Shown here: positions 4,818 through 53,188 of the stretch, piece after piece
Numbering within the stretch: the first letter of the stretch is position 1
Layout: each line of letters opens with the position of its first letter
Source of the DNA: Acidobacteriota bacterium
Lineage (GTDB): Bacteria; Acidobacteriota; UBA6911; JACQSX01
Direction: 5' to 3'
DNA length: 64,000 bases
Assembly (NCBI GenBank): GCA_036507075.1
Contig: DASXQR010000059.1
Coordinates: 1-64,000 of the forward strand
Translations under genes and position numbers: made by a program
Notes under the pieces: generated by a model
The model's database searches: none
Seen by the model: the letters and a program-made list of their open reading frames with translations, nothing else
Told to the model about the DNA's origin: nothing

Positions 4818-5855
4818 ATGGTGTTTAGAAAGAAGCGTCTGACGGAAATGGTTTCCTGCGCAGGTTGAGCGGCAAAGCTGCCGCCCAAGGCGCTGGCCCA
4901 GGTTCTGAGTCAGTTGAATGTCCCCAGATCGAAGGATGTCATCGCGGGCTTCGAAAACTCCGAAGACGCAGCCGTTTACCGCCTGAACGAGCGAGAAGCG
5001 ATTCTGCACACCATCGACGTGATAACACCTCTGGTGGATGATGCGCATAGTTTCGGTCGAATCGCCGCCGCGAACTCATTGAGCGACATCTACGCCATGG
5101 GCGGAATGCCCCTTACCGCGCTTTCCTTTGTGGGATACCCCAAAAAGGGAGATCTGGAACTGCTGCGGCAGATTCTGGCAGGAGGGATAGACATGCTGCA
5201 GAACGCGGGATGCTTTCTGGTAGGCGGTCACACGGTTGCAGATGAAGAGTTGAAGATTGGATTTGCCGTCACCGGTCGCGTGGAAATCTCAAGCCTGAAA
5301 CGAAACTGTACCGCGCGAGAAGGCGACTCGCTGGTGCTGACAAAACCTGTCGGGACCGGAGTGATCGCGACTGCAATCAAGCAGGGGAACGCCCCGGATC
5401 CAGTGATCGCAAACGCCATCCGCTGGATGACCGAACTGAATCGCGATGCCGCAGAACTGATGGTTCAAAACAACGCCAGCGCCGCGACCGACATCACCGG
5501 ATTTGGTCTCCTCGGACATGCCATGGAAATGGCCAAGGGCAGCGCCGTGACGATAGAAATTGACGCCGGCGCGGTGCCGCTGCTGGACGGCTCTTTCGAG
5601 CTGGCCATCAAGTCGGTCCCAGGCGGAACTTCGGCAAATCGCGAGTATGTCAGCGATTCAATCAGCATCGAATCAAACCTCAGTACACCGCTGCTCAATC
5701 TGCTTTTCGATCCTCAAACATCGGGAGGGCTTCTTGTCTCTTTGAGCGACCGGGATGTCACTGGCTTTGTGCAGCAGATGGAGTCTCGCGGCAGGATGGC
5801 GCGCATCATAGGCAGGGTGCGTCCCTACGAGGGATTCGCGCTCAGACTGGTTTGA
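4818..5855 (+). CDS. selD: Selenide, water dikinase (selenophosphate synthetase), selenocysteine-containing (TGA 4866-4868 = Sec17)
   Basis: ATG 4818 gives MVFRKKRLTEMVSCAG-TGA-AAKL in frame with the 4914 ORF. U17/K20 match SelD Cys17/Lys20. Other motifs: EDAAVY, FGRIAAANSLSDIYAMGG, GGHT, TDITGFGLLGH, DPQTSGGLL. Confidence 0.93.
4869..4913 (+). promoter_or_regulatory. Candidate bacterial SECIS hairpin(s) downstream of the selD UGA
   Basis: gcggca-aagc-tgccgc (4869-4884) and ctggcccag-gtt-ctgagtcag (4893-4913, with one G-U pair and one mismatch). Confidence 0.55.
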
Positions 5856-13227: not shown

Positions 13228-13309
13228 TTAGGGGATGTTGCAACGTGTCACTTCAGGATAAATACGGAAACCCTTCGTGTCTTCGTGCCTTCGTGGCAGA
13301 AACGTTTTT

Positions 13310-14452
13310 ATGAGCGAAAATCTTGATCGCCTGAAAGATCTGCGAAGCTTCGATGTCTCGCCTTCCCGGGGTTTTTTGTCTGATGACCGCCCTCTCGTTG
13401 AATTACCTTCTGCCTGGAAGTTTCTGGATGCCTTTGGCGCCGAATTGCCGAAGGTTCTTAAACAAAGAAAAATAAAACAGGCAGCCGAAGACTTACCCGC
13501 CCCATCTGAAGAGATGCTTGCAAGCCTTTCACCGGGCGAGCAGCGCCGCGCGATGATGATCTACGGTTTCGGAGCGAGCGGTTACATCCATGGGCAAGGC
13601 CAAAGGGTCTCTCAACTCTGCAAACCGCTCGCTCAGCCACTGTATCTATTGTCAAAGCGGATCGACAAGCCGCCCATCCTATCGTACTGCTCGTATTCGC
13701 TGAACAACTGGAGATGTGTCGGGCCACAGGACGACATAACGGTTGATAATCTGAAGCTGCTTCAGAATTTCATTCCTGTGCCCGATGAGGACTGGTTCAT
13801 CCTGATCCACGTCGATATTGAACGAAGAGCGGCGCCGGCAATTGTTAATGTCTGCAATGCCGTCATTTCGGCGGCCCAGCGGTCTTCGCAGACTCTGTTG
13901 AGTAACCTGACAGAAATAGGCGCATCGCTCCAGTCAATGATAGAGACCTTGAAGAGAATGCCGGAAGGTTGTTCCACAGAGGTCTACTTCAAAATGGTGC
14001 GCCCCTGGATCATGTTTTTTACCGACGTTGTGTACGAGGGCGTAGCAGAACTGGAGAATAAGCCGCAGAGCTTTCGAGGCGAAACCGGTGCCCAGAGTTC
14101 AATTATGCCGCTGCTGGAAGCCGGCCTGGGAATCAGGCACGACGAGAGCATACTCACACGCCATCTGAGGGAAATGCGCTTGTATATGCCTCGAAAGCAT
14201 CGCTTGCTTATCGAAGAAGTCGAGCGCAGCTCGAAAGTCCGAGAGGTGGTGGTCAGTTCGGGCTCGACTGCCCTTAGAACCGCCTACAACTACTGTCTGG
14301 AGAAGATGTTCGAGTTTCGGGACATTCATCTTGGTTACGCTTTCAGTTATATCCATCAAAAGACGGAAAACGAAATGGGGACAGGAGGCACAGTCTTCAT
14401 GCCCTGGCTGGAGCAGATGCGAAATGAGACCCGCGAGCAGTTCCTGGTTTGA
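13310..14452 (+). CDS. Indoleamine 2,3-dioxygenase / PrnB-superfamily heme protein
   Basis: PPILSY, DEDWFILIHVDIE, FRGETGAQSS, LREMRLYMPRKHR, FRDIHLGYAFSYI (proximal His), GTGGT. ATG 13310 is preferred because the 13277 extension is repeat-derived. Confidence 0.85.
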   Translation: MSENLDRLKDLRSFDVSPSRGFLSDDRPLVELPSAWKFLDAFGAELPKVLKQRKIKQAAEDLPAPSEEMLASLSPGEQRRAMMIYGFGASGYIHGQGQRVSQLCKPLAQPLYLLSKRIDKPPILSYCSYSLNNWRCVGPQDDITVDNLKLLQNFIPVPDEDWFILIHVDIERRAAPAIVNVCNAVISAAQRSSQTLLSNLTEIGASLQSMIETLKRMPEGCSTEVYFKMVRPWIMFFTDVVYEGVAELENKPQSFRGETGAQSSIMPLLEAGLGIRHDESILTRHLREMRLYMPRKHRLLIEEVERSSKVREVVVSSGSTALRTAYNYCLEKMFEFRDIHLGYAFSYIHQKTENEMGTGGTVFMPWLEQMRNETREQFLV

Positions 14453-44420: not shown

Positions 44421-44514
44421 AACTGAGTGAAGAAGCGCCAGTCGATCCGGGTTGACCGGCGCGTACGGTCTCAACCATCGAACGTCCGGCACGATCTTCG
44501 ACACCGCCTGCCTG

Positions 44515-45858
44515 ATGAAACTGATACGGCCCACCTGCTGCTTCCTGAGCTTGTTCCTTTTCATAGCGCTGAGCATGAGGGAGAACCTGGCTGCTGCCAA
44601 ACCTGCAAGCAGACCGGCTCTGCAGTCCGAAACAGCGGTCGATTCAACCACACTAAACGGAAAACTGATGATGGGTTACCAGGGATGGTTTCTCTGCCCG
44701 GCCGACGGCTCACCCGTGAACAGCTGGTTTCACTGGTTCCGCCGCAACCAGACCCCGGATGCTTCGACCGTTACCGTGGACTTTTGGCCCGACACGTCGG
44801 AACTGGAGCCGGACGAACTGTTCATCACACCTTTCACGCGTCCCGATGGCAGCTCCGCACCCCTCTACTCCTCGTACAAACAAAAGACTGTTCTGCGACA
44901 TTTCCAATGGATGCAGCAATACGGACTTGATGGGGTATTCCTGCAGCGATTCTCATCGGAACTTCGGGACAGCCGCTACTTCAACGTTCGAAACCAGGTT
45001 ACCCGGAATGTTCTCGCGGGAGCGGAGGCATTCGGGCGTGTCTTTGCCATCATGTACGACATCTCCGGCCAGAGTGAAGCCACACTGGTCCAGGATCTCA
45101 AGAATGACTGGTCTTACTTGGTAGACACGCTGAAAATAACCGAGAGCTCCAGCTATTTGAAACATAAAGGAAAGCCCGTGCTGGCGATCTGGGGATTTGG
45201 ATTCACTGATCGACCCGGAACGCCCGAGCAGGTGCGCCAGCTGATTTCGTTCTTCCAGTCTGAAGCGCCTGAAAAATATCGGGTCACACTGGTGGGAGGC
45301 GTGCCGTCTTACTGGCGCACTCTGACACGGGATTCCAAAACAGATCCGGCCTGGGCGCAAGTCTATCGCTCGTTTGACGTGCTCAGCCCATGGGCCGTAG
45401 GGCGATTCTCCGATGAGGCAGGCGCGGAACGATTCAGGCGCGATGTCACTGTGCCTGATCTGGCGGAAACTGCCGCCGGGAACATAGAATACCTGCCCGT
45501 CATTTTCCCCGGCTTCTCCTGGTCAAATCTTAACAAAGGACCCTTTAACCAGATCCCTCGGTTGGGAGGACGGTTTTATTGGAAGCAGGTCTACAACGCA
45601 CTCTCGGCGGGAGCGTCGATGCTTTACGGCGCGATGTTCGATGAGGTCGATGAAGGCACCGCTATGTTCAAAATGGCGCCTACCCCGCTTCAGATGCCCG
45701 AGCAGGGAAGATTCGTGCCTTTAAGCGTCGATGGCTATGCCCTGCCGAGTGACTGGTATCTCCGCGTTGCGGGCGCGGCAGGAAAAATGCTGCGGCATGA
45801 AATCCCCCTGGAGAACGAAATGCCCCTGCCGCTTCCCACTCGAAGAAGAAGGCCCTGA
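44515..45858 (+). CDS. Secreted GH71/GH99-like glycoside hydrolase
   Basis: Signal; KLMMGYQGWF, HFQWMQQYGLDGVFLQRF, MYDISG, YLKHKGKPV..WGFG, PGFSW, YGAMFDEVDEGT; ends PTRRRRP. Confidence 0.8.
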   Translation: MKLIRPTCCFLSLFLFIALSMRENLAAAKPASRPALQSETAVDSTTLNGKLMMGYQGWFLCPADGSPVNSWFHWFRRNQTPDASTVTVDFWPDTSELEPDELFITPFTRPDGSSAPLYSSYKQKTVLRHFQWMQQYGLDGVFLQRFSSELRDSRYFNVRNQVTRNVLAGAEAFGRVFAIMYDISGQSEATLVQDLKNDWSYLVDTLKITESSSYLKHKGKPVLAIWGFGFTDRPGTPEQVRQLISFFQSEAPEKYRVTLVGGVPSYWRTLTRDSKTDPAWAQVYRSFDVLSPWAVGRFSDEAGAERFRRDVTVPDLAETAAGNIEYLPVIFPGFSWSNLNKGPFNQIPRLGGRFYWKQVYNALSAGASMLYGAMFDEVDEGTAMFKMAPTPLQMPEQGRFVPLSVDGYALPSDWYLRVAGAAGKMLRHEIPLENEMPLPLPTRRRRP

Positions 45859-46036
45859 TTCGGAATGCGGAATGGGGAATGCGGAATGGGGAATAGGGAA
45901 TGCGGAATGAGGGATGCGGAATACGACCAGGTTGAAATTCTGATAGATGCGACGGAATCACCACCCATTCCGCATTCCGAAATCCGCATTCCTCATTCCC
46001 CATTCCGCATTTCCCATTCCGAAATCCGCATTCGAG
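45857..46036. repeat. aatgcgg-family inverted heptamer element overlapping the 3' end of the GATase gene
   Basis: Arrays flank the spacer tacgaccaggttgaaattctgatagatgcgacggaatcaccacccattcc. Confidence 0.85.
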
Positions 46037-46766
46037 AAAATTCGGCGGCCGCTTTTACAAATGCCATCACAACCGGATGCGGGTTTTCGGCGGTGGAAGA
46101 AAGCTGCGGCTGAAATAGCGTGGCCAGGAAGAACCGGTGGTTCGCAAGCTCAGCAGCCCGAACTTCTCCCTGCCCCCCGCGCGCGCTGAAACGCAATCCC
46201 GCATCCTGGCGTCTACTTTCGTAGGCTGGATTGACTTCGTAATTGCAGAAAAACTCCTCCTCTACATCGTGGCTCTTGTAAATCAGACGGGCGATGCTTT
46301 TCGGCTCGATGTGGACTCGAAGCCCGCCTGAAAGCTTGGGCGCCCCAGCCGGTCGCTGCTGCACTGCGCAAACAACGGGATAGATAACCAGGTTGTTCGA
46401 TCCCTGACCGTGTTCTGCGCTGTCGGCGTCGGCGATTCCCAAAACATTGCGTGCATACTCTAACAGAGTATGTTGAAACCCACCTCAGGTACCAAGCAAC
46501 GGCCAGTCCCGCACTCTGGCAAATTGAATCGCGCGCAGCACCCCCTCGATGCTTCGGTAAGGACTTCCCGGAGAGATCCAGACGCCCTGGCAATTCCTGA
46601 GGGTCCTCTCGTAGTTCTGCTCCAGCAGAGAATCGGTGGGAAGCCACTGCCATTTCAGATTCAGACCCAGAGCCTGCGCTGCGTGATCGAGCGAATGATT
46701 AGTGGCATGATGGGAGTGGAAGTCAGGGTTAAAGTCTCCGATGATTGAAATCCGGACCGGTGTCAT
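45993..46766 (-). CDS. Stand-alone CTP-synthase-like class I glutamine amidotransferase, probable selenoprotein (TGA 46487-46485 = Sec94)
   Basis: ORFs 46485-46766 and 45993-46442 share a frame. Read-through gives PGSPY..AIQFAR..PLLGT-U-GGFQHTLLEYARNVLG, placing TGA at the nucleophile-elbow Cys. A perfect hairpin begins 12 nt downstream. Confidence 0.85.
46454..46472 (-). promoter_or_regulatory. Candidate bacterial SECIS hairpin
   Basis: On the minus strand CATACTCT-GTT-AGAGTATG forms a perfect 8-bp stem. There are 20 nt between the UGA and the G-starting loop. Confidence 0.75.
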
Positions 46767-46804
46767 TAGCGTTTAGTGTGAGATTTAGGGAATGGTGGAG
46801 CGGC

Positions 46805-47205
46805 AGCACGCGAAGCACAGAGCTACGTCCCGCAAGGGCGTGGTGGGGATAATGCTAGTCGGTGAGACGACGGGAGTCGGTGATATCAGGGAGTCGGTGA
46901 GACGGCAAGATCACAGTACCGCGATCCGTAAGGTCGCGGCGCGTCGGAGTAAACCGCCTCGAAGGGATTAGCATCGCTCCTTCCACCAGCCACTCCGCGA
47001 CATCCACATGATGGCAACTGCCGTCAGGCCGGAGCGATGGTAACGGCTCGAGACGGCTCAATCTGCGCGCCGCGACCTTACGGATCGCGGTACTGTGATC
47101 TCACCTACTCGCCTGATTCCCACCACGCCCTTGCGGGACGTGGCTCTGTGCTTCGCGTGCTCCCCTTCTCCCCCTCTCCCACTCTCCCTCTCTCCCACTC
47201 CCAAA
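46805..47205. repeat. Three-layer nested inverted-repeat element followed by an 8-mer pyrimidine array
   Basis: Outer agcacgcgaagcacagagctacgtcccgcaagggcgtggtggg / cccaccacgcccttgcgggacgtggctctgtgcttcgcgtgct. Inner cacagtaccgcgatccgtaaggtcgcggcgcg / cgcgccgcgaccttacggatcgcggtactgtg. Confidence 0.85.
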
Positions 47206-51868: not shown

Positions 51869-53086
51869 TTAACGTTCCGCAACCACGAACGTAATCTCGA
51901 CCCGCGCCGTTCCCACCAACCTGGAAACGGCAACGCAGGTGCGGGCCGGCGGATCTGATTTGAAGTAGCTGCGATAGACGGCATTCATCCTGGCGTAGTC
52001 GTCGATGTCGGTCAGATAAACTTTCGCTTCGGTGACATCCCCGTAGTCTTTGCCGGTACCCTTCAAAACGGCCCCCAATCCATCCATGACTTCTTTCACT
52101 TGAGCTTCCAGATCTTCAACGGAACCGGCCTTACCGGCGGGATAGACGCGACCCGCTGTCTCAACGGCCTGGCTGAAGTTCGGGCTTGGTTTTATTCCTT
52201 CCGGCGGAGGAATCACCTTCTTTTGCGCGCGGCTGGCAATGACCGTGATTTCCACGGGAGTGCCGCGCGGAAGCGCGGAAACGCCGACAGTGGTCCGCGC
52301 CGGAGGATCGGTCTTGAAAAAGCTGCGGTAGACATCATTCATCTTTTGAAAGTCGTCCATGTTCGAGAGGTAGACGTTCGACGAGACGACCTGAGAGAAG
52401 TCCATACCGGCGGCCTTCAGAATAGTCGATACGTTTTCCAAGGTCTGCCGCACGTGATCCTCAATCGCGCCTTCCGGGGCAACTCCCGTCTTCAAGCTGC
52501 GGCTCCCCTGTCCGGACAAATACAGCAGATCACCCGACATCATCGCGGGGCTGTAGGGAGCATTGGGGCTCGGCTTGTATCCTTCGTACCGAATTATTTT
52601 CTTCGGAGCCGTCGACGCGATAAATGTGATTTCCACCTGGGATCCCCCGGGCAACGCGGGAACGGCCACCGTGGTTCGCGCTGGGGGCTCGCCGGCAAAA
52701 TAGGTCCGATAAACCTCGTTCATGCGATCAAAGTTGTTGATATCAGTGAGATACACGTTGGAGCACACCACGTTGGAAAAGTCCATACCGCCTGCCCGGA
52801 GCACGGCTCCCAGATTCTCCAGAGACTGCTTGACCTGCGCTTCAAAGCCCTCCGGGTGCCGGCCGGTTGCGGGATCGCGACTTCCCTGCCCTGCCAGATA
52901 AAGTGTGTTCCCCACAAGAATCCCCGGGCTCAAGATAGGCGGAGCTGCGGGAGTCGCGGCGGCGGCCGGCGCTACCGGACCTGAATCGGCTCGTTGCGGG
53001 CGAACCACCTTCCTTCCGGAAGATTGAGCTTTGCTGAGCGTCAGGAGCAGCACCAGGATGCCGAGAAGTGTGATGGTCGCTTTCAT
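51869..53086 (-). CDS. Secreted protein with three tandem RidA (YjgF/YER057c/UK114) domains
   Basis: Signal peptide, then three repeats of VYL.D...F/Y..MN.VY..F...PPART.V.V..L....VEIT. Confidence 0.88.
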   Translation of the reverse strand: MKATITLLGILVLLLTLSKAQSSGRKVVRPQRADSGPVAPAAAATPAAPPILSPGILVGNTLYLAGQGSRDPATGRHPEGFEAQVKQSLENLGAVLRAGGMDFSNVVCSNVYLTDINNFDRMNEVYRTYFAGEPPARTTVAVPALPGGSQVEITFIASTAPKKIIRYEGYKPSPNAPYSPAMMSGDLLYLSGQGSRSLKTGVAPEGAIEDHVRQTLENVSTILKAAGMDFSQVVSSNVYLSNMDDFQKMNDVYRSFFKTDPPARTTVGVSALPRGTPVEITVIASRAQKKVIPPPEGIKPSPNFSQAVETAGRVYPAGKAGSVEDLEAQVKEVMDGLGAVLKGTGKDYGDVTEAKVYLTDIDDYARMNAVYRSYFKSDPPARTCVAVSRLVGTARVEITFVVAER

Positions 53087-53188
53087 TGGTCCTCCCACAG
53101 TTCGCATGTGGAGTCTCAACCACAAAGACACGAAGGACACAAAGGTACCACGTGAAGCCGGCCGAGGCCAGTCGTCTGGCGGGATCAG

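Follow-up and report, generated by a model that had tools for sequence, protein, structure and literature searches.

What does an in-frame TGA mean in a gene that otherwise reads as a stand-alone glutamine amidotransferase, and what could the product do with selenocysteine (Sec) in place of the catalytic cysteine? The question is raised by the minus strand of a 64,000-nucleotide (64-kb) stretch of acidobacterial DNA, here called the window, in which a preliminary description had joined two open reading frames through a TGA and proposed a Sec-containing amidotransferase. The features of the locus are collected in Table 1.

Table 1. Coordinates of the gene, its predicted active-site residues and associated elements, numbered along the window.
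Feature	Position	Strand	Basis
ORF of 257 aa with Sec; NCBIfam NF004836 member; CTP synthase glutaminase-domain fold	45993..46766	-	profile 278 bits (cut-off 260), pLDDT 95.9, Z 31.9 to 5n29
TGA, codon 94; selenocysteine at the nucleophile elbow (G-T-U-G-G-F-Q)	46485..46487	-	alignment to Cys homologues
Upper hairpin of the SECIS; stem of 8 bp, GUU loop with its G 20 nt after UGA	46454..46472	-	stem conservation, recoding test
His19; at the column of an invariant CTP synthase Tyr; possible replacement base or ligand	46710..46712	-	alignment
Gln98; retained amino-acid/anion-site residue, nucleophile +4; equals Gln423 of T. brucei CTP synthase	46473..46475	-	alignment
Glu118; invariant in CTP synthases, mostly retained in the family	46413..46415	-	alignment
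Cys133; loop after strand 125-130; candidate resolving cysteine	46368..46370	-	AlphaFold model, alignment
Cys174; in place of the His in R-H-R-Y-E of CTP synthase; possible first partner of Sec94	46245..46247	-	alignment
Gln-Pro-Gln in place of the catalytic His-Pro-Glu	46104..46112	-	alignment to family and CTP synthases
Sec-type selD (selenophosphate synthetase); supporting machinery, 40 kb from the gene, not co-transcribed	4818..5855	+	motif S-C-A-G-[TGA]-A-A-K

The internal TGA and its hairpin

Re-reading the minus-strand frame from 46766 to 45993 gave 257 codons with one in-frame TGA at codon 94, translated in the context L-G-T-[TGA]-G-G-F-Q-H, so that the two reading frames join as originally described. 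The frame has no extension upstream of the ORF, and neither a Shine-Dalgarno nor a sigma-70 match was found upstream of the gene. The TGA aligns to the cysteine of homologues, as expected for Sec at the nucleophile position: Cys occupies this column in 144 of 147 representatives, and among 80 loci in acidobacterial genomes the codon is TGC or TGT in 79 and TGA in one. With a TGA-specific scan pattern, which fixed some of the stem bases of the hairpin described below and gathers TGA loci only, so that no Sec/Cys ratio can be drawn from it, at least 120 metagenome stretches were matched. The matches listed contain 80 loci, all of which align to the family with 36-59% identity to this protein; 67 are open for at least 130 codons, 8 end at a contig edge and 5 have an earlier stop. 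As five other genomes also carry the TGA, the codon is not a peculiarity of one assembly. Relaxed selection after the TGA, which had been named as an observation that would speak against Sec, was not seen either; the downstream half of the gene is conserved like the upstream half (56-64% vs. 50-62% identity) in six of six pairs. Gene callers split the ORF (P0020). A single sequencing run covers the whole gene and may be the source sample, and it therefore provides no independent assembly of the exact allele; among RNA runs none with the allele was listed.

The machinery for Sec incorporation is present. The Sec-type selD had already been noted in the window, and selA, selB and the tRNA-Sec gene selC, the last two of which the genome had to contain for the proposal to hold, were found on contigs other than that of the window. 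A selB gene was likewise found in all five other TGA genomes and in 23 of 29 Cys genomes, and the six genomes without a selB match all carry the Cys allele.

The hairpin CATACTCT-GTT-AGAGTATG (46472-46454) has a perfect 8-bp stem, as reported before, but the stem begins 12 nt after the TGA; the 20 nt originally given is the distance to the loop G. The claim that it is built from unusual AT-rich codons stands in part. Relative to the long ORFs of the genome TTA (2.8% of Leu), ACT (15% of Thr) and CAA (25% of Gln) fit it, whereas CAT (44%) and TAT (42%) are ordinary. When the same peptide was recoded synonymously, a perfect 8/8 stem in this register appeared in 1613 of 200,000 recodings (0.8%). 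The 88-nt stretch containing the hairpin has no extra stability relative to shuffled sequences (z 0.53, not significant); folding energy was accordingly dropped as proof of a SECIS element, the support for which comes from conservation rather than from energy. All eight pairs form in 57 of 82 distinct Sec segments and in none of 88 Cys segments, a comparison set drawn mostly from one Terriglobales clade, in agreement with the proposed SECIS element just 3' of the UGA with a G in its loop. Moreover, 90.4% of cells are paired in the hairpin register compared with at most 60.5% in slid controls. Sec alleles prefer synonymous codons such as ACT, CTG, GTA/TTA and TAT, and GAG is found in 82 of 82. 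Covariation is thin, with only two of the eight pairs changing on both sides, and in 20 of the 82 Sec segments no more than 3-4 pairs form in this register, these segments apparently relying on another hairpin. It is practically certain that the internal TGA encodes selenocysteine.

Two further observations concern the same region. One Sec clade (L148, L153, L155, L168, L169, L171, L174, L187, L191, L193, L211, L212) is predicted to form another hairpin, with a loop of five bases and mismatches inside it, which suggests an independent or remodelled SECIS. In five Sec alleles (L001, L152, L154, L180, L221; L001:4277-4318) a compensatory change in the SECIS from U-A to C-G turns Tyr104 into Cys. 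Cys104 also occurs in the neighbouring Cys94 genes of Terriglobales (loci L002-L080), and selB is present in 17 of the 19 tested. This pattern hints at reversion from Sec to Cys, an event that is termed rare in a recent review (PMC13188914).

Family, distribution and genomic context

That the gene codes for an NF004836 selenoprotein is almost certain. The profile matches over model positions 1-227 of 228 along residues 4-240, the family motif G-x-U/C-x-G reads G-T-U-G-G, and the length of the stand-alone domain falls within the about 230-260 aa of the family. It is this family that carries the curated '(seleno)protein' label mentioned in the preliminary description, which was also right in treating the gene as stand-alone. 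The PF00117 profile (39.7 bits, cut-off 22.8) assigns the class I amidotransferase fold with its nucleophile elbow, while the PyrG profile reaches 143.8 bits against a cut-off of 462.75, the N-terminal synthetase domain being absent. An AlphaFold model computed from a 66-sequence alignment superimposes on the CTP synthase 5n29 with an rmsd of 2.3 Å over 234 aligned residues, and Foldseek also led to CTP synthase glutaminase domains. After CTP synthase the nearest folds are gamma-glutamyl hydrolases (SpuA 7d50, Z 22.5; 4l7q, Z 18.4). The protein has no Pfam or NCBIfam match to MsrA, fRMsr/MsrC or ArsC and no match to Pfam C26. The genome carries an intact PyrG of 553 aa on another contig (C216) with kdsA next to it, and the gene is thus not the CTP synthase of the cell. 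A fragment or remnant of pyrG was excluded on the same ground and by the score above the NF004836 cut-off.

Both the family and its Sec form are already catalogued, and the gene adds a member. Xiao and Zhang (2025; PMC12013277, Table 3) list a Sec-containing 'glutamine amidotransferase (COG0504, PyrG)' from Desulfosediminicola ganghwensis and report further homologues with TGA or Cys, and NF004836 appears with the motif GxUxG in a 2026 review (PMC13188914, Table 1). The accessible parts of these two sources give no function for the family and mention neither a lost triad nor extra cysteines. A literature search, the coverage of which lay mostly outside subscription journals, found no paper giving the family a function and none on PRK06186. 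The family is large: of 8000 candidates with lengths of 141-450 aa, 7346 clusters reach E 1e-30 or better, and the clusters retrieved from the ESM Atlas all belonged to it as well.

Its distribution is patchy, since the 60 nearest genomes contain no member that passes the cut-off. A search of 401 genomes of the phylum gave matches of E 1e-35 or better in 23, which hold 15 family loci (5 with TGA, including the present one, and 10 with Cys) and 10 PyrG loci. Relatives from the DNA scan belong to Acidobacteriota, and a viral scan gave three loci. An unrooted FastTree of 196 rows, calculated with column 94 left out, requires 13 switches between Sec and Cys, of which at least 9 are forced by well-supported (starred) branches. 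An ancestral Sec, suggested by a first tree that was TGA-biased and built with a quick method, was not retained, as the balanced unrooted tree fixes no direction. Repeated exchange of Cys and Sec is described in PMC13188914 as typical of redox-active cysteines.

In the window the gene stands alone between two repeat elements, and no synthetase partner was found among the neighbouring genes, as had been stated. A cysteine-synthase-like gene lies about 950 bases upstream on the opposite strand. Of the repeats, the upstream one (46775-47191) is a long imperfect inverted repeat with 93-nt arms that are 80% complementary and an inner 48-nt pair; about 76 sites of the genome match parts of it, and it is therefore regarded as a REP/MITE-like intergenic element. 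The other (45858-46033) lies between convergent genes and is an inverted array of 7-nt units (GGAATGC/GCATTCC type) with about 185 genome matches, into which the gene extends with its stop and roughly its last 12 codons. Beyond it a 468-aa ORF (44452-45858) converges on the gene; Pfam and NCBIfam gave no match for it at the thresholds applied. Elsewhere the window holds a gene of the indoleamine 2,3-dioxygenase family (13277-14452; PF01231, 260 bits), a family uncommon in bacteria, and a 423-aa protein with three tandem Rid (YjgF) domains (51869-53140) whose gene is convergent with that of a DgaE/SelA-like PLP enzyme.

Neighbours differ between clades, and the idea of a conserved operon partner was rejected. 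Outside Acidobacteriota neighbourhoods were taken from 8 plasmid-collection loci and short metagenome contigs. A conserved upstream membrane gene with a weak GIDE match is confined to the acidobacterial branch, and a divergent LysR regulator adjoins the gene in three of four actinobacterial plasmid loci. The genome has msrA and msrB, and Msr genes are absent from the 64-kb window. Downstream of the gene, at 0.4-2 kb and in convergent orientation, msrA-msrB are present in three genomes of a single genus, and a different msrB is 43 nt from the gene in L195; Msr genes were found in only two lineages among 194 family loci (some overlapping), convergent and not operonic. An uncontrolled tally found recurrent thiol and sulfur neighbours, namely, besides these Msr genes, a BCP peroxiredoxin (L171), bshC (L127), cysteine dioxygenase (L001) and, in L275, DinB, TauE and a cysteine-synthase-like gene. 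Six of 16 representatives longer than 300 aa are fused to a GNAT acetyltransferase, one of these being ArsN2 (P0264, 130 bits, cut-off 125), and a search of long proteins gave 9 family fusions, six of them to a CAAX protease in one group (P0279, P0282-P0285, P0290). Fusions to Msr, thioredoxin or ArsC were absent from both the 16 long representatives and the 9 fusions.

Some single loci are of note. The Sec gene sits between pyrG and kdsA-kdsD in L179 (440-5011) and directly precedes kdsA in L197. In L213 a CADD-family/heme-oxygenase-like gene is found immediately upstream of the Sec gene, and in L216 such a gene is its immediate neighbour on the same strand. In a Klebsiella record (L268:4340-5687) a Cys member is divergent from a gene of DUF523, a family for which a Sec form has been predicted (PMC12013277).

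The active site and its candidate functions

To compare active-site columns, locus representatives chosen at an 80% identity cut (53 with Sec, 13 with Cys) were aligned with the 150 best of the representatives at 50% identity, of which 130 covered enough columns; this gave 53 Sec, 140 Cys and 3 Ser members, and 111 true CTP synthases served as the reference. The column of the catalytic His (219) has His in 0 of the 142 representatives covering it and in all 111 CTP synthases. At the catalytic Glu (221) all but one of the 53 Sec members have Gln (52/53), and no more than 49 of the 140 Cys members have Glu, compared with 111 of 111 CTP synthases. The loss of H-P-E, noted before, is confirmed in this protein, which reads F-Q-P-Q at codons 218-221, but the explanation offered for it, that a selenolate may not need activation by His, fails: the 142 representatives carry Cys or Ser, not Sec, at position 94, so that loss of the His predates Sec or is independent of it. 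Judged by the residues of the defining triad, the protein is not an active class I glutaminase.

Other parts of the pocket have been kept. Gln98 is present in 53 of 53 Sec and 137 of 140 Cys members and Glu118 in 51 and 124, respectively. The equivalents of these two residues in CTP synthase are taken here to bind the alpha-amino and carboxyl groups of glutamine, a point on which the same literature search, mostly outside subscription journals, found no paper. Three residues are new. Cys174, in a column that is His in 111 of 111 CTP synthases, is found in 191 of 193 members (53/53 Sec, 138/140 Cys). Cys133 is found in 179 of 193 (49/53 Sec, 130/140 Cys), and Cys is not among the six commonest residues of this column in CTP synthases, which take up 108 of 111 rows. 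His19, at a column with Tyr in 111 of 111 CTP synthases, is present in 48 of 53 Sec and 126 of 140 Cys members. Copies from Klebsiella, Methylobacter and Streptomyces have the same residue set. In the T. brucei CTP synthase an 8-Å cavity around Cys419 is lined by Arg498, Arg500 and Tyr501, and segments running from a pair of parallel strands line one of its sides (PMC5413811). Cys174 aligns to His499 of 5n29, which the same paper sets beside the nucleophile, and by homology Cys174 should therefore adjoin Sec94. The cavity-lining segments would include Cys133, to judge from the position of its loop after strand 125-130 in the predicted model.

The preliminary description had called this a selenoenzyme with a non-redox fold. 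That is doubtful, because two family-wide cysteines and His19, which it overlooked, are present. In the three Ser94 variants Cys133 is missing in 3 of 3, compared with 14 of 193 other members (Fisher p 0.0006, uncorrected, and only 2-3 independent events, since two of the three variants share one unstarred branch); a resolving cysteine would be expected to show such joint loss. All three retain Cys174, which points to a role of this residue independent of the nucleophile. There is, in our estimate, an even chance that the family is a Sec/Cys-relay oxidoreductase on the CTP synthase glutaminase fold, acting on a glutamine-shaped amino acid. The substrate would be held in the retained Gln98/Glu118 pocket, Sec94 would attack an oxidised heteroatom at the side-chain position where glutamine has its amide, the oxidised Sec would be resolved by Cys174 and Cys133, and the disulfide could be recycled by thioredoxin or a low-molecular-weight thiol. 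The MsrA scheme, as given in PMC13188914, serves as the model for this relay. The Msr genes near some family members and the divergent LysR regulator lend it weak contextual support; against it stand the changing neighbourhoods, the occurrence of Msr genes in just two lineages, their absence from the window, the lack of fusions to Msr, thioredoxin or ArsC in the proteins searched, and the msrA and msrB that the genome already has. It is tempting to speculate on the substrate. As methionine sulfoxide has the shape of glutamine, the free amino acid is the leading candidate, though improbable as a specific assignment; another sulfur or arsenic oxide mimicking glutamate is a speculative alternative.

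If the family is not a relay, it is conceivable that it is a covalent hydrolase, transferase or lyase, although we consider this rather unlikely. Sec94 would then form an acyl or adduct intermediate on a glutamyl-type or electrophilic substrate, His19 would replace the triad His, and the cysteines would aid binding or protect the nucleophile. The retained nucleophile elbow, Gln98 and Glu118 agree with this, as do the appearance of His19 exactly where the family loses His219, the gamma-glutamyl hydrolases as nearest folds after CTP synthase, and the GNAT fusions, which fit amino-acid detoxification; the DJ-1/PfpI branch uses a cysteine without a His-Glu triad, although the literature search, mostly outside subscription journals, found no paper on this point. 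However, 17 of the 194 members that have a residue at column 19 lack His there, five of the 53 Sec members among them, the oxyanion loop G-G-F-G now reads G-S-P-Y, and the two near-invariant extra cysteines and the loss of Cys133 with the nucleophile are left unexplained. A soft-metal or metalloid site, where Sec94, Cys133, Cys174 and perhaps His19 would chelate Zn, As(III) or Hg in a metalloenzyme, trap or chaperone, including one for arsenic glutamate mimics, is improbable. Three thiol/selenol residues and a His are a typical ligand set, and one member is fused to ArsN2, but this is one of 150 representatives; Cys133 is replaced by the non-ligands S, A, T, P, R, F, Y and G, losses of His19 and Cys133 are uncorrelated (p 1.0), and no ars, mer or metal-efflux gene was prominent among the neighbours scanned.

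Two other explanations carry far less weight. An accessory subunit or regulator of CTP synthase, acting as a trans or decoy glutaminase domain, would have the right fold, and the gene lies beside pyrG and kdsA, or kdsA, in the two loci mentioned; yet the arginines of R-H-R (columns 173 and 175), present in 111 of 111 CTP synthases, read F and N here. These two arginines bind GTP in the fly enzyme (PMC8325340), and with them lost the family is unlikely to serve PyrG. Since the pyrG-kdsA pair of the genome is also intact and on another contig, and no member passing the cut-off occurs in the 60 nearest genomes, such an accessory or regulatory role is very improbable. That the gene is a pseudogene with a nonsense codon at the Cys position is scarcely credible. 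The five listed TGA loci with a further stop within 130 codons, the ORF split by gene callers and the missing Shine-Dalgarno and sigma-70 matches are what a pseudogene might show, but the same TGA recurs in loci of only 36-59% identity with the hairpin fixed at synonymous sites, the 3' half is conserved and the Sec machinery is complete.

The Sec assignment itself amounts to a correction of annotation, to which the anatomy of the active site is a useful addition: a widespread family that databases and papers call 'CTP synthase' or 'glutamine amidotransferase' is without the glutaminase triad and has a near-invariant set of three Cys/Sec residues, and this loss and gain make its function directly testable. 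If the relay reading is true, a textbook fold has switched from hydrolase to oxidoreductase, which would account for the many exchanges of Sec in and out at this site. We know of no oxidoreductase on the class I amidotransferase fold. The more specific proposal, that NF004836 is a new class of sulfoxide reductase whose glutamine pocket binds free methionine sulfoxide or a sulfur- or arsenic-oxide mimic of glutamate for reduction by a Sec94-Cys174-Cys133 relay, is unlikely as it stands; were it true, it would be, to our knowledge, the first such oxidoreductase, and thousands of genes now called 'CTP synthase' would have to be reannotated.

Comparison with known systems

With NF004836 the protein shares the score range, Sec or Cys at the same column, the stand-alone organisation and the SECIS just 3' of the UGA. 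It differs in nothing at the family level, this copy having a longer loop after Cys133, as in the acidobacterial branch. CTP synthase PyrG (5n29, 3nva, 1vco, 1s1m) has the same fold, nucleophile elbow, Gln at +4, conserved Glu and cavity-lining strand; here, by contrast, the synthetase domain is absent, His-x-Glu has become Q-P-Q, R-H-R has become F-C-N, Tyr has become His19, Cys133 has been gained and the G-G-F-G loop reads G-S-P-Y. The gamma-glutamyl hydrolases of Peptidase C26 (SpuA 7d50, zebrafish GGH 4l7q) are likewise stand-alone class I amidotransferase folds, but at 15-17% identity; they act on glutamyl compounds and keep the Cys-His-Glu triad.

The closest parallels to the candidate activity are MsrA, fRMsr/MsrC and thioredoxin-coupled ArsC, all of which combine a catalytic Cys or Sec with one or two further conserved cysteines. 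The same combination is found here at columns 94, 133 and 174, in roles that would be analogous. MsrA has Sec forms, as this family does, and fRMsr and ArsC use three-cysteine relays. A further likeness is that fRMsr arose on an unrelated small-molecule-binding fold; the fold of the present protein is different from that of all three.
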